Shown here one piece after another: positions 8,730 through 55,134 of a stretch of DNA of 64,000 nt. The notes under the pieces are model-generated. The model searched no databases. It saw nothing but the letters and a program-made list of their open reading frames with translations, and had not been told where the DNA came from. The stretch's first letter is position 1, and each line of letters opens with the position of its first letter. Source of the stretch: Rhynchopus sp. YZ270_cl-10 (Eukaryota); the NCBI GenBank assembly GCA_964035575.1, contig OZ037841.1, positions 1,054,001 through 1,118,000 on the forward strand, given 5' to 3'. The position numbers were made by a program, and so were the translations under genes.

Positions 8730-9485
8730 AGCAATAAAAGGAGATTTTTTTTTGTTGAGATTTTTGCTAAATTTTTTGATGCTCTTGGCAAAAAAAGGGG
8801 TACTTTGTTAGTGCGTGGTAGATGCGTGGTCTTAAAGCTTTTAAAAAGGTGACAACAGCGAGGTTTAGGTTCATCTTATCAAATTTTTCGTTAAAATGCG
8901 GCTAAAAAAAATCATATTTACATAAAAATGTTCTTAGTACACCCAGCAGGTCTTACGGTCGTGGCTGTGGTTTCTAGGAGTTATGTTATAAAGGGGAGCG
9001 GGTTTTCTTTAAAAAAAACTTTTCCCTTTTTTATTATTTTTCTTCTTTCTGTAAGGTTCTTTCGTGGCTATTTTCCCCCATCTTCAGTGCACAAGAGATA
9101 GTGTTAAATATTTGGTTCAAACGTCGTGAATAGCCCCATATGGTGCAGAGGGAAGGGAGGTTCTTTGAAGTTAACTCTTTCCTTTCGTGAACACTCCGGG
9201 GTTCGATGTCAACTTCACTTCGTTACCGTGCTCTGTTTTCTCTTGCGCAAAAAGAAAAAAAAAAATATTCCCATATTGTCCCCCCCTCGTACCGCCAGAG
9301 AGTAGGGGCTGTTTTTATGTCTATCTGTACTTCATTGGAGGATTGTGCTATCACGTTTAGTACTATTAGTACTATTTTTTTTTTTTTTTGCTGTACTTCA
9401 TTGGTATACACATCACACACCCCACACGACCGTCCCCCCCGGTTCTTTCCTTGTGGCGCATCTGCCTGGGTCCTCTCCCACTCAG

Positions 9486-11342
<1,857 letters not shown>

Positions 11343-14300
11343 CGGAGCGAGAAGCGTGACCCCGAGTCGCTCGCAGCCCACAACTACGAGCAACTTCCTC
11401 GCGAGTGCATAGAAACACGCCCTGGTCCCCGCCACTTCCCAAACCAAGCCTCCTCATCATCATCATCATCATCCGTGGCATCCTTTTCTCCTCGCCCCTT
11501 TTTCCCTACGTCACTCTCAGACACATCTTCTTCCTCTGCTTCCTCCTCTTCTTCTTCTTCCTCTTCTTCCTCCTCCTCTTCAACGGATAGATCCTCCTCA
11601 CGTACGTGCTGCTCCGATGCTGAGAACACGCTCACGATAACCACCCTCAACTGCACATCCCTGCAGAACTACGCACACATCATACACGACCTGCAGTGCG
11701 ATATAATTTGTCTGCAAGAGACAAAATTGACCGAGTCCAAGATCTTTGAGATGAACGACTTCTTCACCACAGTTTGGTCCCCAGAGTGGGGCCCCCCCAT
11801 GGATGGCGCACTCGTCCATGGCATCCGCAGTCCACACATTGGGGAACGTGGGGGAGTTGCCACCATGCTGAAGAGACCGGGCATCATGTTCCTGGACACC
11901 GAATTGACGTCTTCTCTGAAGCCCTCGCTGAGGAAACGCGTGGTGCACACACGCGTGGCGCTTGGTTCCGGCCGTCTGTTCCTGCATGTGGTGAATGTGT
12001 ACGCCCCGTCAGGTGACACGCCAAGAGGTACAGTTGCTTCCCGCGAAGAACTCCTCCACACAGTGCTTGTGAAGTTTCGAGAAGCCCTGGGTAACGTTCC
12101 GTTGATTGTGTGCGGCGACCTCAACACCGATGTGGAAAGATCACCAACATTGCGGAAAGCACTCGCCAATGACTGGTGCGATGTCGCGCTCCTGGGAAGC
12201 ACTGGGGATGACGGCAAGCCCCCTGCCACGTTCACTCGCAAAGACTCAGCGGGAACCCGTATCGACTACATCCTGCTGAATAGCGTCGCTGCACACGCCA
12301 TTCATAGCTGTTGGACACAGAGCATCAACTGCATCCCCAGCCACAAGTCCGTCAACGTGCGGCTCTGCCTCTCTGTGTTTACAGAGTCGACACTCCGATA
12401 CATTATTCCCAAGCAGATGCCGGAGCTTGGACTTGTGGCGAATGCTGAGACAGTCGGCAGGAATCTCCTACAACAACACAACTGTGCCGCAGCACTTGCG
12501 TCCGGTGACATTGACGATGCGTGGGAAGCGATCGCATTGGCTGGGGAAGAGTTTCTCCTGCTCGCGGCAAAGGCAGCTGGTGACACGCTTTCGAAAGGGT
12601 TCTGTGGCCGCTCCAAGATCCCCCATCCGGTGTTGAAACCTGTGTGTGCACCTACACGACCGGCGTCTGTTGGTGGGTCTTCCCCCCGACAGGACCAACT
12701 TGCCAAATTCGAGTACAAGCTCACGGATCTCATCGCAAAGACTGAATCTTGTCCTGGTGGGGTGATGGAGAATCCTGTGCGCAATGCCTGGGGTAAAGTG
12801 TTCCGTACCGCAATTACGCTCAAGTTGATGAGGTCCGAGGAGACGACAATCCCTCTCTCGCTCGAAAGGCAAATACAGATCCTTAACTCTCTGCTGGAAA
12901 AATCCAAGATGCTTATGAACCTTGAGATACGCAATACCCGTCTACAGCGCGAGAAGCAGTACACCACCAAGCTGAAGGTGGATTTCAGCAGCGAACGACG
13001 AAAACTCACGGCGTGGTGCATGGGTAAACAGGGTGTTCCTATTTCCGCCCTTCGGGGGGAAGATGGTGTGCTTACGGCCAACCACAGGGAGATGGACAAA
13101 CTCCTGCGTGATGAATGGAAATCGGTGTTCAACCTATACGACCACGACCATCCCGAGCCAACTCTCGCCTCTTTCGAACAACGTTTCGGCAGCTTCGTCG
13201 CGCACTCCCCGATGTCCCTAGACCCGCTAAGTGGTGCTGACTTGCGTAGAACGCTTGACAAGAAAGGTAAGCGCACGGACGCCTGCGGAACTGATGGCTG
13301 GCGCTCATTGGAGCTTCATGCGATGCCCCTGTGCATACTGGACGGTTTTGCCCGAGTGTTCAACGCGATAGAGACGAACGGTGTGTGGCCGCAAGCGCTG
13401 TTGACCGCCCTGGTGACGCTCCTTCCCAAAGGCGAGGACCAGTCCCCCTTGAAGCTACGTCCTGTGACAGTGACCAGTGCGGTGTACCGGTTGTGGGCCT
13501 GCGCACGCCTGCAGGCAGTTCAACAATGGCAGGAACAATGGGTACACCCGTCGCAACATGGCTTCCGCCCAAAGCACAGCACGAACGACGTCTTGTATGA
13601 CGTCTTCACACAGATGGAGGACGCTCTGCTCGGTGGCGAACCGCTGCACGGTCTGGCACTCGACTTTGCGAAGTGCTTCGACCGCGTACCACAGGGCCTC
13701 ACCTTGGATCTTGTAGAGAAGATGGGGCTTCACCCCAGGATCATGACACCTCTGCGAGCAATGTACGCCAAGCTGAGACGGCGGTTCAAGCTGCCCTCCG
13801 GCGTAGGAGAGGCGTACTCCGTGACGAATGGGATTCTGCAGGGGTGCCCCCTCTCTGTGGTGCTCATCAACGCCTTGATGTCGGTCCTGACACACTGCAT
13901 CACGGCAGAGGTACCTGAGGCGTTTGTACGGTCGTTTGCTGACGACGCATACCTTTTGTCTCGCCATAGTGAAGCTTCGGTGGGGGCGTGTCTGCTGCGA
14001 GTGGAGGACTTCTGCCGCATCACAGGCATGCGCCTCAACATGGCGAAGACCTTTGCCTTCTCATCATTGAAGAACCACAAATGCAAGCTGAAGTCTGAGG
14101 ACAACCATAGGTTCCGGACAACAGAGTCACTCCGCTCACTCGGCGTGATGATGTACAGCTCCCTACGGAGCAAGGGGCGATACAACGCTACGGTATACCA
14201 ATCAGCCGTGAGGGCGCTCTCATGTTTGGGTGCGACACCGCTCTCCTTCTCCCAGAAGGTATCTATTGCCACATCTGCCATCCTCCCTTCAGTGTTATAC

Positions 14301-15773
14301 GAGTCCGCATTCAACATGCCCCCTCAGTCAGTGTTGAATGAACTAACGAAGGCAGTGGCGATGTGCTGCTGGGGCCCCACCTACCTTACCCGTTCAGTGG
14401 ATGCATTGCTCACACTCTGCCTGAAGGCGCACATGGCACACCCCCTCTCGAGTGCAATATGCCGGACGTTCAGAACTTACGCTGCCAGTGTGGAACGCAA
14501 CGACGCCATACGCCAGAGGTGCATGAACATCAGAGAGAGATACGAGACCCTGGCCGCACGGGGTACACCTATGCATGCAGTTGGTCCAGTGGGGACGGTG
14601 CTTGCCGCCTCCCGCAGATGTGGCGTGAGTTGGGACCCTGAGATGAAGACAGTGACGTCTACGTCTGCAACCGCGAAGACTACCCCCATCATCGAGATAG
14701 ACAAAGCCAAGAGGGCCCATGAAGTGCGAGTTCTGGCACGTACGGCGGTATGGGATGACCTACAGAGTAAACGCCCTACGTACGACGGCATCAACGACGG
14801 CATTGACACCCGCGCCACCAATGCCCTGTGGCGCAATCTACAATACCACGACCCCCTCAAGGCTTTCCGGATGCGACGTGTTCTGTGTGGTGGAGTCCTC
14901 TTCTGCCATCCAGATGGGCTCAAGCGCAGTGGCCTGCCCGAGGCGGACTTCAGCGATAAATGCCCCTTATGCCTCGTCCAGGTTACATGCCACACACGCC
15001 ACCTACTGTGGCACTGCAGCATAGTGCACACACCGGCATTCACTGCCCTACATGCGTCGGCCATCAGCCTCTACGGCAAGGGGCTTCCCACCTGCTTTGT
15101 GCTGCACGGCATTGTGCCCTCCAATGTGAGCAAGGTGACGGTGAAGGCGGTACAGTCTCTTCTCCTCGATGCCGTCACCACGATCGACACGACCCTCTCA
15201 AGTCCAGCGGATGTGGCCCCGGCTGTGCACCCTTGGAATCTCACATTTGCTGCCTCTAAACGGGATACCCCCTTCCGCACATATCTGACCAAGCTACAAC
15301 CTAGTTTTTCCTCCACCTATAGGGAGGCGTTCACTTTGAAAGCTTTCCTGTGGTGGGTGATTACGCTCGAGTGGAGCAAAGAACCCCGCGACGTGTCGTG
15401 TGTCGAGCTCGCGGTCGACTTCGAATTGCGCACAAGGGTCTTCCTCGCCAAACAGACCTCTAATATCCGCGAGCGTGGGCGGGCCATGCAAAGGCTCATC
15501 GTCAAGGCTAACATGCGGGCTTTAACAGCGAAACTCCGCCGCGCCCCATTCCCTGGTGTGAAGAGGGATCGTGTGCACTCCCTCCGTTCCGTCGGCGCCC
15601 CGGCGCTCATCGGATTCAGCAGACGCCCAGTGTTGTGTGCTAAAACACGTGCTTTTCTTGAATCACTAAATCATGTTGTCCCCCCTTCCCGGTCAGGGTG
15701 GGGTAATGATTGTATACCTGCTTACAGCTTCCCTGTAAACCAAACACAAGCGCAACACTCCGGGGTTCGATAA
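11343..15773 (+). CDS. Element A ORF2: 2A-like peptide + apurinic endonuclease + reverse transcriptase + CCHC finger + C-terminal domain
   Basis: APE motifs TLNC, CLQET, NVYAPS, GDLN, RIDY, SH. RT motifs LRPVTV, QHGFR, LDFAKCFD, GILQGCPLS, FADD. Finger CPLC-x8-HLLWHC. Open from the codon after the ORF1 TGA. Confidence 0.93.
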   Translation, partial: RSEKRDPESLAAHNYEQLPRECIETRPGPRHFPNQASSSSSSSSVASFSPRPFFPTSLSDTSSSSASSSSSSSSSSSSSSTDRSSSRTCCSDAENTLTITTLNCTSLQNYAHIIHDLQCDIICLQETKLTESKIFEMNDFFTTVWSPEWGPPMDGALVHGIRSPHIGERGGVATMLKRPGIMFLDTELTSSLKPSLRKRVVHTRVALGSGRLFLHVVNVYAPSGDTPRGTVASREELLHTVLVKFREALGNVPLIVCGDLNTDVERSPTLRKALANDWCDVALLGSTGDDGKPPATFTRKDSAGTRIDYILLNSVAAHAIHSCWTQSINCIPSHKSVNVRLCLSVFTESTLRYIIPKQMPELGLVANAETVGRNLLQQHNCAAALASGDIDDAWEAIALAGEEFLLLAAKAAGDTLSKGFCGRSKIPHPVLKPVCAPTRPASVGGSSPRQDQLAKFEYKLTDLIAKTESCPGGVMENPVRNAWGKVFRTAITLKLMRSEETTIPLSLERQIQILNSLLEKSKMLMNLEIRNTRLQREKQYTTKLKVDFSSERRKLTAWCMGKQGVPISALRGEDGVLTANHREMDKLLRDEWKSVFNLYDHDHPEPTLASFEQRFGSFVAHSPMSLDPLSGADLRRTLDKKGKRTDACGTDGWRSLELHAMPLCILDGFARVFNAIETNGVWPQALLTALVTLLPKGEDQSPLKLRPVTVTSAVYRLWACARLQAVQQWQEQWVHPSQHGFRPKHSTNDVLYDVFTQMEDALLGGEPLHGLALDFAKCFDRVPQGLTLDLVEKMGLHPRIMTPLRAMYAKLRRRFKLPSGVGEAYSVTNGILQGCPLSVVLINALMSVLTHCITAEVPEAFVRSFADDAYLLSRHSEASVGACLLRVEDFCRITGMRLNMAKTFAFSSLKNHKCKLKSEDNHRFRTTESLRSLGVMMYSSLRSKGRYNATVYQSAVRALSCLGATPLSFSQKVSIATSAILPSVLYESAFNMPPQSVLNELTKAVAMCCWGPTYLTRSVDALLTLCLKAHMAHPLSSAICRTFRTYAASVERNDAIRQRCMNIRERYETLAARGTPMHAVGPVGTVLAASRRCGVSWDPEMKTVTSTSATAKTTPIIEIDKAKRAHEVRVLARTAVWDDLQSKRPTYDGINDGIDTRATNALWRNLQYHDPLKAFRMRRVLCGGVLFCHPDGLKRSGLPEADFSDKCPLCLVQVTCHTRHLLWHCSIVHTPAFTALHASAISLYGKGLPTCFVLHGIVPSNVSKVTVKAVQSLLLDAVTTIDTTLSSPADVAPAVHPWNLTFAASKRDTPFRTYLTKLQPSFSSTYREAFTLKAFLWWVITLEWSKEPRDVSCVELAVDFELRTRVFLAKQTSNIRERGRAMQRLIVKANMRALTAKLRRAPFPGVKRDRVHSLRSVGAPALIGFSRRPVLCAKTRAFLESLNHVVPPSRSGWGNDCIPAYSFPVNQTQAQHSGVR

Positions 15774-15826
15774 CCCGCGGAGTGTCAGTGCCTGCGTCCC
15801 AGAGGCGTTTGCACTATCAACTTCAC
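15754..15826 (+). repeat. Family-A 3' terminal double hairpin (other copies ~9190, 24100, 29004, 41893, 42271, 50124, 53301)
   Basis: ACACTCCGGGGTTCGATAACCCGCGGAGTGT-C-AGTGCCTGCGTCCCAGAGGCGTTTGCACT-ATCAACTTCAC overlaps the ORF2 stop. Parts of it recur near-identically elsewhere in the window. Confidence 0.85.
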
Positions 15827-16543
15827 TTTTATGTGTGTTTTGCACTAACAACTTCCATTTCTATTTTTAGCCACTTACACCAATGACTAACTGGTGCATA
15901 TACCAAAAAAATGTGCACCTGTTTTTCCTTCTTCTTTTCTTTCATTTTGGTTGAAATACAAAAACCCAAAATGGAAAATTAAAAAAAAACGGAAAACTCG
16001 CAACAAAACTTAAGTAACTTCCAACACAGAAAACCCATGCAAAGCCTCACCCCTATAATTTTCCTTCTCCTCCCTCCTCCCTCCACACAACCATCTTTGG
16101 AGTGTAACTCAAAATATTCTTCCCTCTCTCCACAGAAGCACACGACACAACACACACACACACAAACAAAAGTGGGCCATACTCCGTTCAGGCGTTACCC
16201 ACTCTAAACCCGTTATCAAACACACACACAAATCTCTATTTACCCCCCCTTTTCTTTCCTCCGCCCAAATGCCAAACCTGTGTCCCACCCCCAGCTAGCC
16301 GACCTATAGTCAAAAGAACGACCAAAAAAACCCCAACACTTTTTTAAGTGTTGTTCTACTACTGAGCGTACAAAAAAGGGAGGACTTTTGGATTTATTAT
16401 CATAAAACGACCAACAGCACTTGCTCTCTCTCTTTCTTAGGTTCATCTTATTAAATTGTTTTCTCAACCATTTTCTAACCTTACTCTGTCTTAGGTGACT
16501 AAGCACACGGCTTTTGTACGTTTATCTTCCGACTTCTCCTTTT

Positions 16544-29708: not shown

Positions 29709-29883
29709 CGTTTTTGCAAGTTGGCACGACCACCACCACCCTGCTCATACAAAAAATTTCTTTTTCCCTCATCACATAGCAACTCTCATTGAAAACTGGC
29801 AACACTTTTGTTGTCTATAGCATTAAAAAGTTTTCCCTCATCACATACAACCACAAAACCTTTCCCCAACCCCTCAGTAGTGC

Positions 29884-29975
29884 CCCTCCCCCCTCTCTCC
29901 CCTCTCCCCCCTCTCCCCCCTCTCCCCCCTCTCCCCCCTCTCCCCCCTCTCCCCCCTCTCCCCCCTCTCCCTCCT
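29884..29975. repeat. (CCCCCTCTC)n polypyrimidine tandem repeat
   Basis: Tandem 9-mer directly upstream of the RNA ligase ATG. Confidence 0.8.
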
Positions 29976-29985
29976 CCGCCAAACA

Positions 29986-31008
29986 ATGTTTTCAAAATAC
30001 GAAAAAATGAGCGAATCCGCTGGGGACTGGGATACCAAAGGGGTCCGCGCCTTTAAATCCAAGGCTCCTGAGGACCATTGGGTGGCGACGGAAAAAATTC
30101 ATGGCGCGAACTTTTCTTTGGTTGCCACTACCAACGGGGTGCGCTGTGCCAAACGCGACACACTCCTGGACGAGCAAGACACCACCTTCTACGCTGGCCA
30201 CCGCGACATCCACCACCGCTATGCCAATTCGGTACAGCAGCTCTTTCACGCCGTCTCCTCCACCGAAGCCCACCTTGCCACGGTCACCATCTATGGTGAG
30301 CTCTTTGGTGGTCGATACCCTATAGAAAACACATCAGAAGAGTTCACAGATGAACCCGAAACCACCGAGGACAACACAACGGCAACCGCCATCCAGCAGG
30401 GTGTGTGGTATTCCCCCACCCTGCAGTGGTCCGCCTTTGACGTAGCCTTTACCCTATCCGACGACTCTCGCAGATATCTCCCGTACCGTGAAATGGCGGC
30501 GCTCCTGGCTGCCCATAGTATTCCTCATGCGGCGCCCCTTCTGATTGCTCCGTTTCAGTCTTGTGTGAATTTTCCGCTTCCGTTTCAGACGACGATTCCA
30601 AAGATCTTTGATTTGCCTGCATTGCCGCAGAATGACGCAGAAGGGGTAGTGATCAGGCCGTATGCCGTGGAGGTAGAGGTCATGAATATGAAAGGGAAAA
30701 GGGTGCGTGCGGTGTTGAAGGTGAAGGCAGAGAGGTTCGCGGAGTTGTCGGATAAGAAGACGGTGCGGGGGCTAGCAGGGGCATCGGATGTAGCGGTGTT
30801 GTGTGCAATGTGTGTCAACGCAAACAGACTCGCAGCGGTTCTCAGTAAGACAGGCAGGCTGACGAAGCGGAATCGGGCGGAGGTGACGGCACGTCTTGTG
30901 GACGATGTGGTGGAGGAAGTGGCACGCAAATCACCAGGGGCAAAAGAAGCAGATATTCGAAAAGAGGCTGCTCCTCAAGTGAACGCCTTCATGGCCAAAC
31001 AGAAATGA
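29986..31008 (+). CDS. RNA ligase, Rnl2 family
   Basis: Nucleotidyltransferase motifs I (TEKIHGANFS), III (IYGELFGG), IIIa (AFDV), IV (AEGVVIRP) and V (LKVKAERFAE). Rnl2-type C-terminal NRLAAVLSK. Intronless. Confidence 0.9.
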   Translation: MFSKYEKMSESAGDWDTKGVRAFKSKAPEDHWVATEKIHGANFSLVATTNGVRCAKRDTLLDEQDTTFYAGHRDIHHRYANSVQQLFHAVSSTEAHLATVTIYGELFGGRYPIENTSEEFTDEPETTEDNTTATAIQQGVWYSPTLQWSAFDVAFTLSDDSRRYLPYREMAALLAAHSIPHAAPLLIAPFQSCVNFPLPFQTTIPKIFDLPALPQNDAEGVVIRPYAVEVEVMNMKGKRVRAVLKVKAERFAELSDKKTVRGLAGASDVAVLCAMCVNANRLAAVLSKTGRLTKRNRAEVTARLVDDVVEEVARKSPGAKEADIRKEAAPQVNAFMAKQK

Positions 31009-34832: not shown

Positions 34833-35243
34833 GGCTTAGTCTCACCAAAATTTTTCTTTCAGATGCGCTAAGCTACCAACTCTTTTTGATGTGTTTGTCA
34901 TCAGTTAATGGACAATTCCTGTGTGCGACAGTTGCTGAGGTGGGGTCAACCACCCCCTTTTCCCCCAAGTGCTACACCAACACCTCGGGATTCGAAAAAA
35001 CCTACGGAGCGTGAGCGGCCCATTACTTTTTTCTGTACTTCATTGGTCTCGCTACGTAACCCCCCTCTGACAATCACTCCCCCCGTCCCCTACCCCCGCC
35101 CCCCACCCCCCACCCTGGCACCTTGGTTTCCCCTCCCCCCCCGCCCCTGCCGCCTTGGTGTTTGTCAACCCCCCCCCTACGTGGTGCGGCTTGTGAAGGG
35201 TCACTAGGAGTTCTTCCCCCCCGACACATATCGGCATCACAAA

Positions 35244-37160
35244 ATGTCTTCAAGCTTCGAGGAGCTGCTGAAGAAGGCCAAGGTCCTTAAGACTAAGGCA
35301 AAGTCCCCTCTCGTGCGCCAGCGGCTCATCGCGATCTTGGAGTTACTCCTCGATCTCGCCTTTGACGACGAGGACGCTGGCCCCGCCCCCGCTAAACGGG
35401 CAAGGCTGGACACGGCGCCACCCCCTACAACGAACAGCAACAGCAACAGCAACAACAACAACAACAACAACACCCCTACAACGAACGACGAAGACGAGCA
35501 AATGGATACCTCACCACCCAAAGAGGCTAAGAAGAAGCCCGCACCGAAGGCACCGAAGAAGAAGAACGCCTGGGTCCACGTGAAGGACACCCGGACCAAC
35601 TCCTCGGCAGCAAAGAGAACGGCAGGTGCCCCGACGCAGCCCCCAGCGACGCAGGCGCTGCAACTGCGGCAGGAGGACTGGGGCATCCCCGTGAAGGTGC
35701 CCGCTGATTTTGACGGCGACGCACCACCAGCAAACGGGGTAATCCTTCTGCCCAAAGACGCAACAGAGGCAGAGCGGATTGAGTGGGTGACCCGCTTGAA
35801 GGGCTTGGCAAAGCTGAACGGCGGAGCTTACGCGGTACTCTCCTTCAGGCCTCTGTCCGCGTCACCGAAGGAGGAGCACAAGGATCCTATGCTCTTTAGC
35901 AAAGGAGACCTGACCGTGTGCCGCGACGTGTACCTCTGGTACGTGGGAGTGCAGTCGACGCCGAAGCTGCAGTATGCGCAAGCGGAGGTGACGGACTCCA
36001 CCACCGTGATCCACGCGGTTGTCGAGAAGAAGACCCTCAGCGCCTCGACGGTCAAACTTCTGGCCGACAAGAAGACCCGCGACTCCGCCATGGCGGCGTT
36101 GGTGAAGCGTGCGACGAAGCAGCTGGATGTGGTTACTGCGCATAACCGCATATTCAACCTCTTCGACTACAAGGACCAGGCCCTGGTATCAGTGCGCGTG
36201 CCAGCGGAGAGGAAGATGGACCTGCTGCGCAGTAGTGGGAAGTACGGTGTGTTCTGGCGCACTACATCGTATGTGAAGGGAGGGTATGCAGAGCCTGTCT
36301 TCTGGTTCAAGTCCGAGGCGACGGTGAAGGATGCGCTGCGTGTGCACGAAGCGGTGAAGAGCGATGGTGTCGTTTGGTCCGGCAATCGGTACGGTTTGAG
36401 GATGAGCAGCATCGACGACCTGCCTAAGTTCCGCACAGCAGGTGGCAACTTGGCGTGCGAACCTCGTGACGAAGCGGTACAGCTGTACGAAGTGCGTGGT
36501 GCCTCTTCCACAGAGGAGGCGGATGATGTGATGCGCTCGCTGAGGACGCAGTGGGAGTGCGCCTCCCGCAAGACGTACCGATCGGGGAGGTTCTTAGTGA
36601 TCATTGTCGAGAGCACGACTGCCCCCCAATGGTCGGTCTTCCGCCGCGGTAGCAAGTCGTCACTCCATGTCACACCATGCACCAAGGAGGCTCTGCGCAA
36701 CAAGAAGAGCAAAGCCATGAAGTTCATCGGGACAGTGCGAAAGCAGAAGGTGACCCTCTCGATGGAGGACTTCCCGCCACTGAGCCCCGACCCCACCAAT
36801 ACGATCAGGGGCGTGAAGCGTTCTGCGTCCGGCCAGCCTGCGCCTACACCGACACCGGCAACAGCAGACGCTCCGACCTCCATCTTCCAAAGGCTGGGAA
36901 CCGCAATGTTCTCTCTCTCACGGTCCCGGGACAGGGAGGATATGAAAGAGGACGTGGATCTGCCTGACGCCGACTCGTCGGGGGGTGAGGAGGAGGATGC
37001 GCATGTGCACGACTGGACACAGGCGGGCACAGTGTTAGTGAAGGCAACGGACGCCACTTGTGCATGCTGTACTAGCTCGATACCGGTGTCCCACGGTGCG
37101 AAGAAGTGCCCAGGATGCGACGCACTCATCTGTGCCACGTGCTTCGGCAACAGCCAGTGA
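35244..37160 (+). CDS. Element B ORF1, with C-terminal Cys-rich zinc finger
   Basis: Homologous to element A ORF1. Ends HDW..CACC..CPGC..ICATC, then a TGA in frame with ORF2. Confidence 0.8.
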   Translation: MSSSFEELLKKAKVLKTKAKSPLVRQRLIAILELLLDLAFDDEDAGPAPAKRARLDTAPPPTTNSNSNSNNNNNNNTPTTNDEDEQMDTSPPKEAKKKPAPKAPKKKNAWVHVKDTRTNSSAAKRTAGAPTQPPATQALQLRQEDWGIPVKVPADFDGDAPPANGVILLPKDATEAERIEWVTRLKGLAKLNGGAYAVLSFRPLSASPKEEHKDPMLFSKGDLTVCRDVYLWYVGVQSTPKLQYAQAEVTDSTTVIHAVVEKKTLSASTVKLLADKKTRDSAMAALVKRATKQLDVVTAHNRIFNLFDYKDQALVSVRVPAERKMDLLRSSGKYGVFWRTTSYVKGGYAEPVFWFKSEATVKDALRVHEAVKSDGVVWSGNRYGLRMSSIDDLPKFRTAGGNLACEPRDEAVQLYEVRGASSTEEADDVMRSLRTQWECASRKTYRSGRFLVIIVESTTAPQWSVFRRGSKSSLHVTPCTKEALRNKKSKAMKFIGTVRKQKVTLSMEDFPPLSPDPTNTIRGVKRSASGQPAPTPTPATADAPTSIFQRLGTAMFSLSRSRDREDMKEDVDLPDADSSGGEEEDAHVHDWTQAGTVLVKATDATCACCTSSIPVSHGAKKCPGCDALICATCFGNSQ

Positions 37161-40100
37161 CTTGAGCCGCAACACGTTAAACACGTGTCAACTACGAATC
37201 AGCAGCGACTTGTCACATCCGGTAGCGTTCACCCACACCCCGGACCCAAGAAAGCCAAGCCATCTGGCAAGACCGGTACGCACAACAACCGCGCAGCCGG
37301 CCCACCAGCAGCGAAGAAACAGCGCACCGCTGCCGCCAGCACAGGACCACCTTTGTCTGCCGTACCACCTGCAAGCGAAGGCTGCATAACAGTCACCACC
37401 TGCAACGTAACATCATACGCGAACCACGCTGCCTGCACGCTTGCGTTGAACAGCACAGTGCTTTGCCTGCAGGAAGTGAAGCTGACGGAAGAAGGTGCCC
37501 GCAGGATGGAAGCCGACCTCCCGCCTGTCTGGAAGCCATTATGGGGCAGACCGCAGCCTGGATACATGCTTGCAGGTATCCGCCACCCCACCATTGCGGA
37601 GAGGGGCGGTGTAGCCACACTAGTGCGCAGACCCTCGAGCGCATTCCATGACAACACGTTGACCGACATCAACTTGTTCCACGACAGGATACAGCTCACG
37701 CGTCTGGCCCTGGGGGCGGGAGGCGTGTTCCTGTATATCTTCAACGTGTACGCTCACTCAGGCTCTAAAGGAGGGAGGAAGAAGGATCGCGAGAAACTTC
37801 TGCACTGCGTCCTCAACACCATGCCTAATGCACTAGGGAAGGACGTGCCGGTGGTTGTGTGCGGTGACCTGAACACCTCTGTCTCTGCGTCGTACATTCT
37901 GCGGGAAGCGGTGAAGTCTGGGTGGACTGACGCTGCTGTGGTGCAGGCCCAAAGGCTCGGTTGTGTCCCTCCTCCAACCTTCATGCGACGCGACTCTGAA
38001 GGTACGCGGATTGACCACGTACTGCTGAATGAGGTGGCGGCCGCTGCTTTGTCCAGGTGTACGACGCACCACGTGGGAGTACCGCTGCACAGCGCTGTCA
38101 CTGTGGAGCTCTCTCTTGCCGCCTTCACACAACTAGTCTACCGATTTGTTGTGCCGAAGGATCTGTCGATGGTGAAGCCTGACCTGAGTGTGCAGAGATC
38201 AGCACAATGCGCCGCTCTCCTGGCTGCGAAGGGCTTCCACGAAGCTGAAGCACGTCTGGACGTACATGACATGTGGAATGCGGTGTCGCAGGCTAGTGAG
38301 GAGTACCTACTTCTGTGTGCGAGAGACGATGGCATCCCCACGAATCGTGGCCACCGTGGCCGTGGTGAGGTGAGGCAGCCGGTGCAGAAAACGATCGCAG
38401 CCCCGACGACGAAATACTCGACAGGTGCAGCACCCCCTCGACAGGTGGAGCTGGCCCGCCTGGCGAATATGTCTCTGGAGCTCCAGATTCAACTAAAGAG
38501 ACTGGCGAATGGGGGGTTCACCGTGCTGGAGCACAAGACCTACTGCCTGTGGGCATCGACACTCCGGAAATGCAAGGAACTGCGTGTGCGTGACCTGTCT
38601 GTGGACGAACTTCCCCTGGGCATAGCAGAGCAGCTGACGCTAGCAGCGGACCTCCACACTACCTCTGCGACACTGGCGAGTGACCTGGGCAGGGACAATC
38701 GAGTCTACAGGGAAAAGCAACTGAAGCTGAAGGCGGTGCACAACTTCGACGTGGACCGGAAGAAGCTCACGGCCTTCTGCAGGGGTACCCTGCCGGACGA
38801 TCTGCTGGCTGTGGCTAGAAGAGACGGGACCCTGACGGCCAACGCACAAGAGATGGATGCCATCCTCCAGGAAGAGTGGAAATCTGTATTCCAGCTCTAC
38901 CGCGAGTGCCCTGAACCGGAGTATGACGACTTTGATGCTGTGTTTGGGAAACATGTAGCGAAGCACAACATGGATTTGCTCCCTCTCACTGGGGAGGACC
39001 TGGACCGCGTTCTGCAGAGTAAGAAGAAGTCAGGCGCATGTGGTGTCGATGGGTGGCGCATGGGTGAGCTGAAGCGCCTTCCTGTGGTCCTGCTGAATGC
39101 GTTTGCCACAACGTTCAACGAGATCGAAGAATCCGGCACGTGGCCTGAAGCGTTGCTCACTGCGCTTGTGACGCTCACTCCAAAGGGAGAGGGAAAGGGC
39201 CCACTGGACCACCGCCCGATCACCGTGACGAGCAGTGTCTACAGACTCTGGGCGTCAGCACGAGTACGTAGTATCCAGAAGTGGCAAGAAACCTGGATTC
39301 ACAAGGACCAACACGGCTTCCGCCCTCGCCACGGGGCTCACAACGTCCTGTTCGACATCTGCACGCAGCTGGAAGACGCACTGTCTGGCGGAGAACCGCT
39401 GTACGGCCTTGCACTTGACTTTGCTAAGTGCTTTGACCGTGTCCCCCAGAAGCTTACCCTCGAGCTCGCAGCACGACTAGGGCTACACCCCCGCATTCTG
39501 CAGCCGCTCCGCACCATGTACGAGCAACTTCAACGTAGGTTCCAGCTTCCACTTGGCGTGGGTACCCCGTTCAGAGTGACGAACGGCATCCTCCAAGGAT
39601 GCCCCATCAGCGTCGTCTTGATTAATGCGCTCGTCGCAGTGCTGCTGAAGGACCTGGACAGCTGCAAGAACACCTGCTCACGTGCGTACGCGGACGACAT
39701 CACCCTCCTGTCACGGAAGTCGATGAACAGCTTAGAGCCATGCCTGCGCATTGTGGAGAGGTTTTGTGCCATCACCGGAATGAAACTTAACGACACCAAA
39801 ACCGTTGCATTTGGATCACGTGAGAGCTTCACCAGCACTCTTGTCTCGAACACAGGTCACAGGTACAAAACACTGGTGAAGGTCAAGATCCTAGGGGTCT
39901 ACCTCTACTGCTCGAAGCACTCTCGACGCTCCTCTCCGGAACGAGTCCGCAAGGCCATTGCAGCCCTGCAACGCCTACGATGTATGCCGCTGGCTTTCTA
40001 CCACAAGTATAGAATTGTGTCAGAATGCATCCTCCCGGGTGCGCTGTATGAGGTCCCGTACGCTCTGCCCTCGCAGTCTAGCTTGAAGGAACTCTCCACC

Positions 40101-41549
40101 GCCGTCAACACCTGCCTCTGGGGCAGTGACTATGGGACACGCGCAGGCCTCGCAATACGCACCGTTTTATTGAAGAGCCACCGCACTGACCCGGCTGCCA
40201 TCATCTGCAACCGGTCCATGAACGTCGTGCTTGACCACATAGCATTTGACGCAACACTGAGAGAACGATGCCTGTCGATACACAAGAGGTACAACGCAGG
40301 AGGAGGCTGGGACTTCCGCCCCCACGGGCCGGTCGGCAACATGACCTCCACTAGCATACTGACAGGCGTGAGATGGTGTGACGACCTAACAACCGTTACG
40401 GAGCTCTCGAGTGCCCCCGTGGAAGAAGAGAAGACACACGCCCTAGGTCTTCTCGCGCCAGGTGAACGACACCACGCCATTCGCGAAATCGTCCGACGAC
40501 AGAAGTTCACAGATCTTGCCTTGGACAGACCGACTTACGACGGCGCTCAATACGGTGTCAACCTCGCCGACACCACGTACCTGCACGACCAACTGCAGTG
40601 GTCCCACCCCCTGCTAGCTTACCGCCTCCGACGTATCATCTGCGATGGGATACTCTACGCGCACCCTACGGTGCTGTGCCTATACGAGTCAACAAAGAGA
40701 GGTGGCATACACCTCGAAGTGAATCAGTGCCCCTTATGCCTCACACCAACCTCCGGGCTGGCGAAGCACCTGCTGTGGACTTGCCCGCACACTGTGTCTG
40801 CTAACGTGAAGGAAGCGCACCGCCCTCTCCTCGACAGGATCGGCCCGAACACCCCGAGTTGCCTGGCTATGCATGGCATAGCTCCCACGAACACGCCCAA
40901 GCACGTAGTAACCGACATGCAGAGATACCTGCTGGACGTCACCACCGCAGTAGATGATCACCTGTCCTCGCGGACGACCACAGCGCCTGCACGCCACCCA
41001 TGGCGTATGGACTTTGAAGTGTTCGATGCGCCCCCATACCAGGAGGCCATCTACCGGCAGCTCGCCCCTTTCTTTGGGAAGGACGATGATCCGAGATGCA
41101 AGCAGAAGCGCCGCGAACTGAAGCAAATGCTCCTATGGGCCTCCTCCCTGAAATGGAGCACCGCCAACCTGCCTGTGACATGCGTGGAACTTGCCATTGA
41201 CCTGGAAATTTTCCACAGGATCTACGTTCTCCGGCCAACCTCTAACATTAGAGAACGGGCCGCCGCCTTGCGCACATTGCTCAACAAGCTTCACCGCCTG
41301 TGCAAAGCCCTTGGGATTCAAAACCCATTTCCCGCATCTGCCATCTCCTCCTCACGGGGCCTCCGGTCCATTGGCGCACCCGGACTTATTGGCTACGACC
41401 GTCGCCCAGTTTTTACGTACCCGCGCTACACTATGCACATGCTCGAACACGTCATCGTACGTGCCAAAATTACGAACTCCGGCTGGGGAAATGACATCAT
41501 CCCTGACAACAAACTTGTAGAAGCCAGCGCAGCTGAAGCTGTGCGATAA
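37161..41549 (+). CDS. Element B ORF2: 2A-like peptide + APE + reverse transcriptase + CCHC finger + C-terminal domain
   Basis: APE motifs TCNVTS, CLQEV, NVYAHS, GDLN, RIDH. RT motifs HRPITV, QHGFR, LDFAKCFD, GILQGCPIS, YADD. Finger CPLC-x8-HLLWTC. Confidence 0.93.
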   Translation, partial: LEPQHVKHVSTTNQQRLVTSGSVHPHPGPKKAKPSGKTGTHNNRAAGPPAAKKQRTAAASTGPPLSAVPPASEGCITVTTCNVTSYANHAACTLALNSTVLCLQEVKLTEEGARRMEADLPPVWKPLWGRPQPGYMLAGIRHPTIAERGGVATLVRRPSSAFHDNTLTDINLFHDRIQLTRLALGAGGVFLYIFNVYAHSGSKGGRKKDREKLLHCVLNTMPNALGKDVPVVVCGDLNTSVSASYILREAVKSGWTDAAVVQAQRLGCVPPPTFMRRDSEGTRIDHVLLNEVAAAALSRCTTHHVGVPLHSAVTVELSLAAFTQLVYRFVVPKDLSMVKPDLSVQRSAQCAALLAAKGFHEAEARLDVHDMWNAVSQASEEYLLLCARDDGIPTNRGHRGRGEVRQPVQKTIAAPTTKYSTGAAPPRQVELARLANMSLELQIQLKRLANGGFTVLEHKTYCLWASTLRKCKELRVRDLSVDELPLGIAEQLTLAADLHTTSATLASDLGRDNRVYREKQLKLKAVHNFDVDRKKLTAFCRGTLPDDLLAVARRDGTLTANAQEMDAILQEEWKSVFQLYRECPEPEYDDFDAVFGKHVAKHNMDLLPLTGEDLDRVLQSKKKSGACGVDGWRMGELKRLPVVLLNAFATTFNEIEESGTWPEALLTALVTLTPKGEGKGPLDHRPITVTSSVYRLWASARVRSIQKWQETWIHKDQHGFRPRHGAHNVLFDICTQLEDALSGGEPLYGLALDFAKCFDRVPQKLTLELAARLGLHPRILQPLRTMYEQLQRRFQLPLGVGTPFRVTNGILQGCPISVVLINALVAVLLKDLDSCKNTCSRAYADDITLLSRKSMNSLEPCLRIVERFCAITGMKLNDTKTVAFGSRESFTSTLVSNTGHRYKTLVKVKILGVYLYCSKHSRRSSPERVRKAIAALQRLRCMPLAFYHKYRIVSECILPGALYEVPYALPSQSSLKELSTAVNTCLWGSDYGTRAGLAIRTVLLKSHRTDPAAIICNRSMNVVLDHIAFDATLRERCLSIHKRYNAGGGWDFRPHGPVGNMTSTSILTGVRWCDDLTTVTELSSAPVEEEKTHALGLLAPGERHHAIREIVRRQKFTDLALDRPTYDGAQYGVNLADTTYLHDQLQWSHPLLAYRLRRIICDGILYAHPTVLCLYESTKRGGIHLEVNQCPLCLTPTSGLAKHLLWTCPHTVSANVKEAHRPLLDRIGPNTPSCLAMHGIAPTNTPKHVVTDMQRYLLDVTTAVDDHLSSRTTTAPARHPWRMDFEVFDAPPYQEAIYRQLAPFFGKDDDPRCKQKRRELKQMLLWASSLKWSTANLPVTCVELAIDLEIFHRIYVLRPTSNIRERAAALRTLLNKLHRLCKALGIQNPFPASAISSSRGLRSIGAPGLIGYDRRPVFTYPRYTMHMLEHVIVRAKITNSGWGNDIIPDNKLVEASAAEAVR

Positions 41550-43355: not shown

Positions 43356-44871
43356 TATTTTCTTACACTTTCTTTCTGATGTGTATGTGCGGGCATATCT
43401 CATCTCTCTTTGTTTTTCATTTTTATGTCAACGGCAAAAAAAAGGCTACAGAAACTCCGATTCCCTCCCGTTTATTCCCTCTTTTCCCAATGTCATTTCC
43501 TCGCCGTACTTCCAAAAATGGAAAATATAAAGTTAAACCCAAGAAAATGCCAGGTCCTTTTTTTTAAAAGATGTGCAAGATGTCCAATTCCCTCAATTTT
43601 AAAACTGCGAGAAGATTTTTAGTTTTTGTGCAAGATACTCGGGGGGGCTGCACAGTGTTGCGGTCTCTGTGTGATTGTATTGTCACAGTGAGAACCATTT
43701 TCCAAATTTTAAAAAACAAGCAAAAAAAAAAAAAAAAAACCACCTTTTTCTGAAGGTGCCGTTCCACAAAATAGTGTGTATCTTTTGTTAGCATGACAAA
43801 CCCCCCATTTTTCCAACAAAGTTTTCCCCCTCACTTTCTTTGCGTGATTTAACAACACAGGAGTCACGACGGCGGTTTCCGTGAGGTTGTCGTCCAAAAT
43901 CAAACACAATTTTGGGCAAGATTTGGTGTTCCCAGCCAGCAATGCTGCACGATGTGTGTGCTCAACGAGGCACATTCATCATTAAGTTTTTTTCTTCTTC
44001 TTTTATTTGCACTTTCAACTTCTCTTTTTTGATTGAAAAAAAAATATGTGTTCTCGCGCCAAACCACTCAGTGTGTTTTGCATTATTTTTTGCAATTTCC
44101 TTCATACAATGTAGAACGGCCTGTCATGACTGGAAATTTTTTGGGCACGACGGGAGTGGGTCGAGCATTTTTATATATTTCCAACCGTTATGCTTGTATG
44201 TATGTTTCATTTTATTTTGTGTTGCGTGCATTTTTTTTTAAAGATATGCGAAAGCCAGACAAGGTGGCCATTCATGGTCAATGGAGCGACGAAAGAAACT
44301 AATAACCAAAAAAGGCAAAAAAAAAAGCAAAGCGACGCTCATCCCCTCCCCTGTTCTGAAAAAAGGTTGTGTTTGAAAAATCAATGGGTAATTCCAACCT
44401 GCGTGGAAGGTTTCCCAGGATGGGTTCCCCCCTTGTTGAAGATGACTAACCACGAGAGGCTTAGGTTCATCTTATAAAACTTTTCTTTATTTTGCTCGCA
44501 CAAGGCAAAACCGAACCGTCTCCGAACAAAAACAAAATAATCTGGTTTAAGAACGAAGAAAAACAAAAAGATAAGAAATAACACACAAAAAATTGAATAC
44601 GAAACACAACACCATGCACCTCTCCATTTTCTTTCACCCTCCCTCCTCTCCCTCCTCCCCCCTCCTCCCTCCTCCCCTCCCCCCCTCCACCACATCCCCA
44701 ATAGATGACACACATCCTACACAAAAAACGCCTTGAGAGAGCACACCCCTCTCTCTCCTCTCCCGAGGGTTTCCGTTCCACCACAACACGGCCTACCTTA
44801 CGTTGCACCATACTGTGAGGTTCTGCCCTCTACCCTGAGAGGTTGAGGGGGTTGTTCCCGCTACAACAACA

Positions 44872-47800
44872 ATGTCCTGCGAGGAGCGTCTCTACCTACG
44901 CTGCACCGGCGTAGGGAAAGTCATTGACCGCATCCTTGCCGAGGTCGTCCGCGAGCGTCCTGCCCAGCCGTACCACTACATGGCACGGCGTGTGGAGGAG
45001 ATTGGCAAGGAGATGGACGCTCGCCGCGAAGCCTCCGCACGTCTCCAAAACGGCTTCACCCCAAAGCAGTATGCACGCACACACCGCAAGGTCCGACGCC
45101 AGACCGCAAACCAAGAGCCCCCTCCCGACACCTCTACACGTTGGAAGTCTTCACGCACCCAACCCACCACCCAAGACGACGACCTAGGCGCCCTCGAAGG
45201 ATTTGGTGATGCTATCGACCTAGCACCACCTTCTCCATCACCTCCCTCGGAGGAGCCCGACACCGACCCCCAACCTGAACCTGAACCCACCCCTGAAGAG
45301 GCATTCGAACCCGAGGATGGGGCAAGTGCGTTCGCGGTGTGCGGTTCTGTGGCTGAAGAGGAAGTGGAGACCTCACGAGAGGAGGAGGTCGTGGAGACTG
45401 CAGTGTCACCTAGGGAACCTCCCCCGTCTTCTCCCCCTTCTTCTCCTCCTCCTCCCACCGACCCTGTGGTGGTGGCAACCTGTTCGACGGTGCGGCGTAT
45501 CACGATCACACAGCTGTACAAATTTAAGGTAGAAGGCCTTCGCCAGGGAAGGCGCTTGGTCAAACAGTATGACGCAGCACCAACACGGATTGCCAAGGCG
45601 AAGGGGGTGAAGTTCAATACACGAGGTTTCCACAGTAGGCAGGAGCAGGGCGAGATTGGAGCGTGGCTGGGTGGTGTCGGGAGTGTCTGGACCTACCACG
45701 ACCTTGTTACGGTGGCGTTTCGTGACCCTGCCACAGCGAAGCTGCTCTCGGAGACGTTTCTTGTCAAGAAAATTGCGCAACCCCTTGCGCTCCGCTCTGT
45801 CGGGTCTACTGTCGACCTTTGCACACTTCTCGACGAAATTCTTTACTACGATCTTCTAAAGCAGGAAACACTCTATCGTGCCAATGCAGCAGGCTTCACA
45901 CTCTACGGCGAAACGCTTGCAAAGCAAGAAAGCCCCCTCTCCAGCGCCTTCCTACAACGCCTTAGCGAGAAGGCTGCTTCGTGGATGGCTATGCAGAAGG
46001 GCTTTCCTCGCGAGGTCCATACTACAGAACGCACACCGCACATCGAGGACAACGTTCTGTTCGCAAAGGAAGGGATAACAGATGCAAACGAATCCTCCGA
46101 ACCCAGCTCAGAGTGTGACGCAGGGCTGTATACGCACAGTATTGGGAAACAATATGTCATTTCCTTGCGCATCTTCTTCGAGGTAGCTGAGGTCGTTGAA
46201 CAGGAGTACCTGACTGGTGCACGACGTTTTGTGTCAGATGCTGCAAAAGAGTTTAAAAGGCGTGCCGCAAATTCTGAGGTGCTCTCGACGGTGGAGTTGT
46301 GGCATTACCCGTTGGTGTGTGTGTTTGTTTCGTGTAGGTTTGGCAGCCAGCTCCCTGGAGAGGAGTGGACGAAGTGGTTGTTGGCGGACCGCCCTGAGGG
46401 GGGTACGGTGCGTGAAGCGCTTACGTTGCACACAAATCTATTCTGCATTCTGTGGACGCATCTGTGGCGTCTCGCAGCACTGCACCCGGTCACACCTTCG
46501 CTTGCATCCCCGCTTATTAGCTTCTTCGATAAGGAGGTGATGAAGGTTGTGCATGACATCGTTGCACTGCAGGAGCTCGCTTCTCAAGGAGATGACAGTG
46601 GACTCTGCAGCCCGCTTCCTCCGCACCCTCTCCTCCGGCTTGACTGGGTTCGACAGCGTCTGAAGAAGGAGCCCCTCCCAGAGGGGAGCAGTGGTGTCGC
46701 ACAGCGGCTGGCGTGGAATGCAGAGACAGCGTTGCATACGTCACTGCTGCGGCGGTTTGCGGTGTCGTACAGTGTGGTGGCGAAGGGCATGCCGTGGGAG
46801 GTGGAGGGTGCTGCGGTGGATGTGATGCAGGAGTGTCGGCGGTTTTGGGAGAACAGCTTCGGGGAGGGGCGTGTGGTAGTGCGGACGGACGTCTTCCAGG
46901 ATGCCTTTGTGAAGCATATTAATGAGAGTGGTGGGACCTCGCTGGCAGGCATGATACGCAGCATGCATAAGGGGTCGTACCTCGCAGAGCGTGGCGGTGC
47001 CTTCACCGCAGCGAACGACCCGCATGCGCTGACGTGTGTGGTCTCGATGCTGCTGTCCTTCCTCGACTATTTCCAGAATGGGACCAGTTTGGTGTCGCAG
47101 TTCGTGCTCTTCTTTGCGTGCATTGCTCCGCAGGGTGAAACGACGTCGTATCTTGCGCGTGCGTTGGTGGAGCTTGCGAATGTGTATGTTCTCAACATCT
47201 TGATCCCGTCTGCGCTTGACTCATATTCCGCAAGCTTGTCTGCCATCACAATGCACCAGGTCGCAACGCTGCCGGAACGTGCCGCGTTTTCGCTGAGGGG
47301 GGGCCCGCGTGCATTTGGTATGGTGGCACGGCGGCGTGGGGCGTGGCACATTGAGCACTTCCCCGAGCAGACCTCGCTGTCTGCAGCGCTCTCTCTCTAC
47401 CTCGGGACGCAGCAACGTGGCGGGGAGAAGTACTTCCGCACACTCCACGAGCTCACACGGCATATGACAGCGACAGTGCAGCCGTACCTCAAACAAGACA
47501 CGGAAATGGTTGTCGTCGCGACGGACCTGCTGTTGTGCTACCGTCCGATGGCAGAGGTCGAGGTTGTCAAGGCGCTGTGCAGGCGGCTCCACCAGGTCGG
47601 CGGGTACTCCGGTGAGCGTCTTGCTTTGGTTCTTGCGCCACTTCTGGTCTACAGTGCGAGTGTGGACGTGCTTCTCGAGAGCAGGGTCGTCTCTGCTCTC
47701 AAGGAGACGTGGCTCTCGGCAGACGCAGCCTGCTGGGCCGCTGGGCGAGCTGTGGCGCTCTCCCTTCTGCCGGCGGAGACGCTCACGCAGGCGACCTCAG

Positions 47801-48705: not shown

Positions 48706-48887
48706 ACAAGCACTAAAAACTTGACGTATCAGCCAGTACCGGTAGCGTTTCCTCTACCCGACACATCGTCGAAAAAAATCTCATCACTGATTTAGGTCAT
48801 CTTTTCGAACATTGACGTCATTTGTTTTTACCCACCCCAGTACAGTCAGAACACGTTACAGGGAAATTATTATCAACACAACAAAAT

Positions 48888-54489: not shown

Positions 54490-55134
54490 ATGTCTCTCTG
54501 CTGTGACTATGATGTTCTGCTGAAGGTGATTGTGATTGGCGACTCTGGTGTAGGCAAGTCGTGTCTGCTGCACCGTTACACAGAGGACATCTACGAGCCC
54601 TACTACATCGCAACGATTGGTGTCGACTTTAAGGTCGACACCTTCGAACGTCAAGGCAAGATCGTCAAGCTTCAGCTCTGGGACACTGCAGGGCAGGAGC
54701 GTTTCCGCACCATTATCACCACATACTACCGGTCGGCGCATGGCGTGATGCTGTGCTACGATGTGACGGACCGTGAGACCTTCACACACCTGCAGCGTTG
54801 GGTGAAGGAGGTGGAGGAGTATGCGAGGGACAACATCCCCTTTGTGCTTGTGGGGTTGAAGGCGGATCTGCCTAAGGTTGTTTCGACTGAGGAGGCCGCA
54901 GAGTTTGCGGATATGCACAACATGAAGCACATTGAGGTGAGCTCACTGAACGGATCGCATGTGAGAAGTGCGGTGACGCTTGCTGTGGATGAAGCGCTCT
55001 CTTTGCGCTGTGAAGACATCGAGTTGGAGACAGAAGAGCGCAAAAGGGCGCTCAGAATCCAGCAGGCGCGAAGCCTCCCCGCACCCAAGCGCATGTCATG
55101 CATTCAAAGAATGAAAGGCGTGTTGGGGCTGTGA
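54490..55134 (+). CDS. Rab1-like small GTPase, paralog 1
   Basis: GDSGVGKS, IATIGVDFK, LQLWDTAGQERFRTI, GLKAD. Confidence 0.92.
   Translation: MSLCCDYDVLLKVIVIGDSGVGKSCLLHRYTEDIYEPYYIATIGVDFKVDTFERQGKIVKLQLWDTAGQERFRTIITTYYRSAHGVMLCYDVTDRETFTHLQRWVKEVEEYARDNIPFVLVGLKADLPKVVSTEEAAEFADMHNMKHIEVSSLNGSHVRSAVTLAVDEALSLRCEDIELETEERKRALRIQQARSLPAPKRMSCIQRMKGVLGL

Follow-up and report, generated by a model that had tools for sequence, protein, structure and literature searches.

How the second open reading frame (ORF2) of long interspersed nuclear elements (LINEs) is translated is regarded as an open question (PMC3894237). The routes described comprise reinitiation, an overlap of stop and start codons and, possibly, an internal ribosome entry site. 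Here, a LINE termed element A is described from a stretch of 64,000 nucleotides (nt) of Rhynchopus sp. YZ270_cl-10 (GenBank assembly GCA_964035575.1, contig OZ037841.1, positions 1,054,001 to 1,118,000 of the forward strand), hereafter the window, to which all coordinates refer. A preliminary description of the window had proposed that ORF2 of this element is expressed by readthrough of a UGA codon at the end of ORF1, followed by a 2A-like (StopGo) peptide that frees the ORF2 protein (ORF2p). 2A peptides in LINEs and readthrough at UGA-C are each known, and no LINE in which readthrough is followed by StopGo was found described in the literature covered, from which most subscription papers and Repbase entries were absent.

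The closest described elements are the 2A-bearing LINEs with an APE-type endonuclease (L1Tc, Ingi, CR1, L2, Rex1, and Crack), which, as the preliminary description had stated, carry a 2A-like peptide before the APE domain of an ORF2 that also encodes a reverse transcriptase (RT) (PMC3708506, PMC3894237). The 2A in these elements correlates with loss of ORF1: most have none, and the 2A has been proposed as its replacement, with three ORF1-bearing exceptions for which the available text mentions no in-frame stop (PMC3708506, PMC3894237). Neither “readthrough” nor “read-through” occurs in the accessible part of PMC3708506, and no such junction appears in the accessible lists of 2As from RT-encoding elements (PMC12846837; bioRxiv 10.64898/2026.09.24.754024). 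Element A differs in having a full ORF1 in frame, one UGA before the 2A-like peptide, and an ORF2 without an AUG start. The second close system is type II viral readthrough (alphavirus, tobravirus, furovirus, coltivirus), in which UGA-CGG precedes the polymerase and the enzyme is made at a low ratio (PMC3159437); the UGA-CGG/CUA context that the preliminary description had called leaky is this class (PMC3159437, PMC3542737). Element A has UGA-CGG and an in-frame downstream ORF; a second element of the window (element B) and a third subfamily of A retain only UGA-C, in the form of CUU and CUC instead of CGG or CUA. Unlike in the viral class, no extended 3′ stem-loop was detected in A, and a StopGo-like peptide follows the stop.

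Processing by a protease, not StopGo, separates the products of gammaretroviruses and of Candida Tca2. In these retroelements (gag-UAG-pol and gag-UGA-pol, respectively), structural and enzymatic ORFs lie in one frame across a single stop, as in A, but both are long terminal repeat elements with a 3′ pseudoknot, and the flanks of the Tca2 stop alone gave no readthrough (PMC2194720). Mammalian L1 and silkworm SART1 resemble the arrangement proposed for A in their bicistronic LINE RNA and poorly translated ORF2 (PMC5972666); they differ in using termination-reinitiation over a 63-nt spacer or a UAAUG overlap and in having an ORF2 AUG, and 2A is not mentioned in the available text. Cardioviruses also place two recoding events that meter the enzyme in a short stretch, StopGo and then a −1 frameshift (PMC5009743), although the order is reversed, frameshifting takes the place of readthrough, and the system is a virus, not a LINE. 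The only precedent in the accessible parts of PMC13517186, PMC13708176, and PMC4176336 is readthrough of premature stops in engineered L1. In Diplonema, approximately 2500 retroelement gene models still await rigorous analysis (PMC10161547).

The features of element A are as follows.

9486..11342, + strand: ORF1, 618 amino acids from its first ATG, with an Asn/Ser repeat near the N-terminus
11340..11345, + strand: UGA-CGG, candidate readthrough site (stop context read from the sequence)
11343..11429, + strand: 2A-like peptide of 29 codons with its core, CIETRPGP, at 11406-11429; the predicted skip, at G|P, falls between 11426 and 11427
11430..11630, + strand: Ser-rich, pyrimidine-rich linker of 67 codons with two candidate AG acceptors (11519, 11589)
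11631..12410, + strand: APE-type endonuclease (Pfam PF03372; alignment to ExoIII/APE structures)
13446..14144, + strand: reverse transcriptase domain (Pfam PF00078, E 2.9e-21)
14961..15017, + strand: CCHC zinc knuckle, with C1207, C1210, H1220, and C1225 nearly invariant in alignment A1
15752..15830, + strand: two-hairpin 3′ end, enclosing the ORF2 stop TAA at 15771-15773; short dispersed copies are known in the window

Element A is an intact APE-type LINE whose ORF1 and ORF2 lie in one frame across a single UGA-C stop. The two stop-to-stop ORFs (9306-11342 and 11343-15773) abut in a shared frame, and the TGA at 11340-11342 is followed by CGG, exactly as the preliminary description had stated. 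The 29 codons after the stop read RSEKRDPESLAAHNYEQLPRECIETRPGP. The earliest in-frame ATG of ORF2 is codon 137 (11751), and the sole other ATG between it and the stop, at 11617, is out of frame. N103 (11649) and E126 (11718) of the endonuclease, which in the alignment fall on the first and second conserved motifs of the ExoIII/APE structures, are both upstream of that ATG; the earlier claim that ORF2 has no ATG until inside the endonuclease is thus borne out. These two motifs are required for APE activity, as established for L1 and APE1. A protein begun at codon 137 would miss both of them, so that ORF2p is expected to need a non-canonical start. Both A and B encode an APE endonuclease followed by an RT in ORF2 (PF03372, PF00078) and are dispersed and multi-copy, their ORF2 clusters comprising 37 (A) and 44 (B) members, many of them N-terminally truncated.

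The ORF1 of element A begins at an ATG immediately 3′ of a pyrimidine-rich AG. No Pfam family was assigned to it, it gave no matches as a query at E 0.001, and none of five ATG-started forms was present in the protein collection searched; in the ESM Atlas, all leads fell below 0.9 (DUF4780, PRE_C2HC), and its profile matches Diplonema papillatum models. In a second subfamily of A, three 1-base deletions within 11 nt (10972-10982) restore the ORF1 frame, a sign of selection on ORF1.

The same junction occurs in element B, the features of which are as follows.

35244..37160, + strand: ORF1, 638 amino acids, Cys-rich C-terminus; TGA at 37158-37160, then CTT
37161..37247, + strand: 29-codon 2A-like peptide, core SVHPHPGP
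37161..41549, + strand: ORF2 (APE, RT); N82 and E105 both precede its first ATG, codon 116

Element B repeats the TGA-C, the common frame, and the 29 codons from the stop to the last proline, although the 29-residue peptides of A and B have only 3 residues in common, those of PGP. Identity between A and B is 40-41% for ORF2 and 28% for the ORF1 core. A quick RT tree (36 sequences) groups A and its variants with the sister family P0002 and with B in a single clade (SH-aLRT 98), in which the RT domains of A and B are approximately 1.3 substitutions per site apart. ORF1 of B terminates at an identical residue in all seven cluster members, and no fusion to ORF1 is seen among the ORF2 proteins listed, which are 15 of 37 for the A type and 15 of 44 for the B type. 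TGA-C terminates only 2 of the 21 other long ORFs on the + strand of the window, and both ORF2s end in TAA. A further junction of this kind occurs in the third subfamily, in which a contig (X1, X4) departs from the reference at 11351. By-eye reading of its 30 loose letters in frame gives R D stop L P H T N S T, with GAC TGA CTC at the stop; an in-frame TGA-C thus stands 33 codons before the last proline. Its upstream part is unrelated to A and has no match to A ORF1 at 80%. This subfamily combines an A-type spacer and ORF2 start with foreign 5′ sequence, which suggests that the 5′ part was exchanged at the stop-2A cassette. The rough chance of two further TGA-C junctions is 0.01, with frame and spacing not yet counted, and, judged on these sequences, the recurrence of TGA-C in frame in A, B, and the third subfamily is more than chance.

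Copies of A were surveyed as contigs of four public sequencing runs (library type unrecorded) over 11230-11445, for which eight variant sites are listed (11285, 11303, 11304, 11334, 11393, 11399, 11405, and 11411). No indels or joints are listed in this interval, and there are no listed changes at TGA-CGG or variants anywhere in 11335-11392; the stop is spanned with more than 31 letters on each side by one X6 contig, of the second subfamily, the right side of the other contigs being shorter. The ATG at 11334, two codons before the stop, is GTG in the second subfamily and is therefore not a conserved signal. All four listed variants within the peptide of A are third-position synonymous changes in the ORF2 frame, where 23% of possible changes are synonymous (P ~0.006 for the set). 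Subfamilies 1 and 2 differ by 8% (six contig pairs), yet one 111-nt contig covering 11335-11445 seems to be identical in both (X1, X3; P 1e-3 to 7e-5), which may reflect constraint or, equally well, recombination between the subfamilies. Judged on these contigs, the comparison of copies that the preliminary description had proposed turned out in its favor: TGA-C is unchanged in the listed variants, the frame and 29-codon spacing are repeated in B (33 codons in the third subfamily), and the sense codon or frameshift in most copies that it had named as counter-evidence is not listed at the stop in any of the four runs. Taken together, these comparisons indicate that the junction is genuine, of a recoding type, and conserved in a LINE lineage that is active.

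The core CIETRPGP of element A matches the 2A consensus (D/G/C/N)(V/I)ExNPGP at seven of eight positions, the deviation being an arginine at position 16 (p16); in addition, p11 is E and the upstream segment contains a proline. The nearest other family, P0002 (56% identical to A), begins MPLSKRTPESVAAFNFLQLPRQNIETNPGP, and its core, NIETNPGP, matches the consensus in full. The peptides of A and P0002 share 18 of their last 26 residues (69%), compared with 61-62% identity in the endonuclease and RT. A 2A-like motif stands just before the endonuclease in 8 of the 35 closest representatives, the others starting further downstream, carrying another N-terminal domain, or being spliced gene models. 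The exact expanded core precedes the endonuclease in P0002, P0007 (twice), P0011, and P0024, whereas P0006, P0008 (twice), and P0009 differ from it only in a histidine at p14, a variant found active elsewhere (PMC12846837). PGP and the preceding (V/I)(E/H) are kept in all informative relatives, directly upstream of the APE domain. On this comparative evidence, the peptide of A is homologous to 2A-like sequences and under selection, and it is very likely translated without an AUG. Skipping in A itself is doubtful, because the arginine replaces N16, at which no substitution was tolerated in two scanned viral 2As; StopGo is thus likely for the lineage and uncertain for element A. The 29-codon 2A-like peptide of the preliminary description stands; its core departs from the consensus at one position.

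The named close relatives of A ORF2 are from Diplonema papillatum, D. japonicum, D. ambulator, and Flectonema neradi. Together with the + strand position of the Pfam-annotated ORFs of the window and the spliced-leader-like motifs before both elements, they mark the host as a likely diplonemid. One D. papillatum family has a homologous ORF1; of its 15 listed members, nine are 1267 amino acids long, and the two examined start inside the endonuclease, as do 3 of 15 listed B-type proteins. Nine longer D. papillatum models (P0017, P0019, P0020, P0026, P0028, P0137, P0139, P0145, and P0146) join ORF1 to ORF2 at no fewer than three different points. These models were not taken as natural fusions; since the join points vary and cut into the endonuclease, they appear to reflect predicted introns that jump the junction, which suggests that a barrier lies at the junction in this family too. 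P0008 places an ORF1 match, two 2As, and the endonuclease within one gene model, and in P0007, P0008, and a genomic locus (L005:520-830), two 2A-like motifs flank a partly hydrophobic peptide of 80-90 residues before the endonuclease. With the endonuclease alignment, a metagenome scan returned three loci, none of the A lineage, and a viral scan returned none. A genome scan found five distant relatives (L004-L008), of which L004 and L005 cover the 5′ side; PGP motifs are present in both and an intact ORF1 junction in neither, L005 being frameshifted there. All five are on contigs of prokaryotic metagenome-assembled genomes, and these eukaryotic LINE contigs are probably binning contamination.

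The Ingi clade (L1Tc, ingi) carries an RNase H domain in ORF2. For the ORF2s of A and B, no RNase H family is listed by Pfam at E 0.01, and both elements have an ORF1 (618 and 638 amino acids), which Ingi elements lack (PMC3708506, PMC3894237). The RT tree contains no named ingi or L1Tc sequence, and there is none among 92 ORF2 matches. A relationship of A to L1Tc/ingi is therefore not shown: it has an ORF1, no RNase H is listed, and its close relatives are diplonemid.

The favored model, to which we assign a probability of about 0.4, is that ORF2p of element A is made by readthrough of the UGA-C, and that the 2A-like peptide then releases it, probably only in part. One spliced-leader (SL)-capped RNA would carry both ORFs. 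Most ribosomes would halt at the UGA and yield abundant ORF1 protein (ORF1p), while a few percent would insert a near-cognate residue and continue. The usual residues at a read-through UGA are Trp, Cys, or Arg. The 2A-like peptide, approximately one exit tunnel in length, would then make the ribosome skip at G|P, so that the products are ORF1p-X-2A and a free ORF2p with proline as its first residue. Readthrough would set the ratio of ORF1p to ORF2p, and StopGo would keep ORF2p separate. Readthrough as such, with or without a working StopGo in A, is rather probable and is preferred because it explains the recurring UGA, the +4 C, and the frame and gives the 2A a task, whereas reinitiation needs none of the three. 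The stacking of recoding events envisaged in the preliminary description gains comparative support from TGA-C, frame, spacing, synonymous variation, and the lack of a usable ATG, and loses ground in that StopGo is doubtful in A and the proposed stem is unsupported. The wider proposition, that two events are stacked within 30 codons, that StopGo is active on euglenozoan ribosomes with RPGP or HPGP, and that the cassette is a portable module, is possible but tentative.

The stem in question, GAGCGA/TCGCTC, had been suggested to stimulate readthrough. Both segments are present 3′ of the stop of A, but their pairing in the proposed register has a probability of ~5e-5 (fold of 11340-11440). Of shuffles, 9.9% contain a 6-bp stem, as do 8 of 103 ORF2 windows. 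The third subfamily has other sequence in place of the 5′ arm of GAGCGA/TCGCTC. When upstream sequence is added to the fold, these segments pair with each other in a register that is shifted, and z is again near 0. Neither six folds downstream of the stops of A and B (z −0.5 to 0.04) nor four longer ones (z −0.6 to 0.3) rise above shuffles.

Several observations weigh against readthrough followed by StopGo. Folding detected no stimulatory RNA structure after the UGA, and UGA with three further nucleotides alone gave only 0.4-2% readthrough in an alphavirus reporter (PMC3159437). Arginine is absent from the functional rare p16 variants reported in the accessible part of PMC12846837; no N16 substitution retained activity in scans of F2A and P2A (bioRxiv 10.64898/2026.09.24.754024); and many LINE 2A-like peptides proved weak or inactive on testing (PMC3708506). 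The core of B in the window, SVHPHPGP, departs from the consensus at p12, p14, and p16 (other B copies have DIHPHPGP), histidine at p16 being natural and functional in 2A (PMC12846837). In the divergent contig of the third subfamily, 9 of 11 differences are not listed, so that the synonymous test rests on four sites. Of the 15 B-type proteins listed, four have a spacer Met as their first residue (at codon 13 in three cases and at codon 9 in the fourth), and in two of three P0002-type proteins the initial Met lies 30 residues ahead of the last proline, which is the position of the stop in A; these Mets could be reinitiation starts or incidental codons. D. japonicum P0009 has 583 open residues ahead of its 2A with no ORF1 match, and P0153, P0154, P0155, P0014, and P0015 carry an OTU-like peptidase domain (PF02338 is listed for P0153 and P0155) before the endonuclease, with no clear 2A. 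As far as these relatives reveal, the UGA-C/2A arrangement is not clade-wide.

The alternative that survives best, although we consider it unlikely, is that ribosomes terminate at the UGA and reinitiate nearby, without an AUG, as proposed for mammalian L1 ORF2, or at an AUG where one is present, and that the 2A then removes a short leader, as it does in L1Tc. Initiation without an AUG is regarded as likely in the case of L1 ORF2 (PMC5009743, PMC5972666), three LINEs that combine ORF1 with 2A have been recorded (PMC3708506), the common frame could descend from an ancestral fused ORF, and such starts would suit the Mets that some B copies have in the spacer and P0002 at the position equivalent to the stop. 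The spacer Mets, however, stand at differing codons (9 and 13) and are missing from A, from the B copy of the window, and from the three listed B members that start inside the endonuclease. Ahead of PGP, A offers no near-cognate codons in frame other than AAG and ATA, and the latter varies to ATC. Reinitiation also leaves unexplained why the UGA, the +4 C, and the frame recur at three junctions with unrelated flanks.

It is somewhat less probable that readthrough is real and the peptide of A no longer skips, so that an ORF1p-ORF2p fusion is made as in retroviral Gag-Pol and the peptide serves as a pause signal, a linker, or a cleavage site. The arginine at p16, the glutamate at p11, and the upstream proline all speak for such a loss, N16 and G11 being intolerant in the scanned 2As, as does the conservation of the spacer upstream of the core, which equals that of the core; moreover, the arginine is unchanged in both X6 contigs covering 11365-11435. 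Tolerance in 2As is, however, context-dependent (bioRxiv 10.64898/2026.09.24.754024) and may be different on euglenozoan ribosomes. The 29-codon length fits a 2A, and the retention of PGP and (V/I)(E/H) in informative relatives, together with the canonical core of the sister family, also argues against the fusion.

A separate ORF2-only RNA, produced by SL trans-splicing, cis-splicing, or an internal promoter, is improbable. Essentially all Diplonema mRNAs are trans-spliced (PMC10161547), Tca2 has a promoter at its junction (PMC2194720), and A offers pyrimidine-rich AGs at 11519 and 11589. Such an RNA would still meet no in-frame ATG before N103 and E126, so that a spliced RNA supplying an ATG to ORF2, which the preliminary description had named as evidence against its proposal, is not in sight. 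B has no pyrimidine-rich AG after its stop, splicing would discard a peptide under selection, and for the contigs, whose library type is unrecorded, the listing contains no joint that crosses the stop.

A nonsense mutation in dead copies, reassignment of UGA, selenocysteine insertion, or editing to UGG is very improbable: one trypanosomatid does read UGA as Trp (PMC12153298), but TGA is an ordinary stop in this host, ending 11 of the 21 other long + strand ORFs of the window with a further in-frame stop within 2-40 codons in the nine checked, the stop is common to subfamilies ~8% apart and to family B, an Rfam scan of the window found no selenocysteine insertion sequence (SECIS) such as a selenoprotein has, and the TGG copies that an edited RNA would yield are not seen, no A>G at 11342 being listed; reassignment, selenocysteine, and editing were rejected on these grounds.

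If readthrough followed by StopGo is correct, readthrough would join the routes of LINE ORF2 translation, and ORF1 and 2A would be usable together rather than as alternatives, contrary to the published correlation of 2A with ORF1 loss. A stop-plus-2A cassette that survives exchange of the sequence upstream would be a portable module, and a bicistronic RNA would be workable in a host whose mRNAs are otherwise monocistronic. The natural RPGP and HPGP variants bear on whether the N of StopGo is invariant on euglenozoan ribosomes, and the 90-nt cassette suits direct reporter work. The junction would also account for public gene models that start inside the endonuclease or seemingly splice ORF1 onto ORF2.

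The 5′ ends of both elements carry motifs that resemble the end of an SL exon.

9325..9337, + strand: SL-exon 3′-end-like motif, upstream copy, 12 of 13 letters matching published SL exon ends
9391..9403, + strand: SL-like motif at the likely 5′ end of A; the same motif stands before B
35030..35045, + strand: SL-like motif of element B, 15 of 16 letters matching published SL ends

The motif occurs twice in tandem before A, and GT follows both element-proximal copies (A and B); the exact 13-letter motif was not found in the literature searched. These fragments are either remnants of trans-spliced RNA that was reverse-transcribed or an SL donor site that was captured, and their position suggests that the template for the copies was a trans-spliced RNA with both ORFs on it. 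At the other end, eight short 3′-end copies (30-80 nt) are present in the 64 kb, five of A type (9191, 24100, 29004, 41893, and 50124) and three of B type (18107, 19048, and 44439), representing either very short 5′-truncated insertions or repeats like short interspersed nuclear elements. By eye, the 3′ hairpins of the elements have neither the spacing nor the AA loop of a SECIS.

In the remainder of the window, the Rfam scan gave one chance match (E 0.92), and no tRNA was found. All 14 ORFs with informative Pfam matches are on the + strand, as were 22 of the 23 ORFs submitted. An ORF at 44839-48018 encodes 1059 amino acids with no Pfam family, and a DUF6748 protein is encoded at 48816-49742. 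An Rnl2-type RNA ligase with RNA_ligase and T4_Rnl2_C domains is encoded at 29881-31008 and an FkbM-type methyltransferase at 61445-63034, and three tandem Ras-family GTPase paralogues with 85-88% DNA identity occupy 54433-55134, 55978-56727, and 59718-60398.

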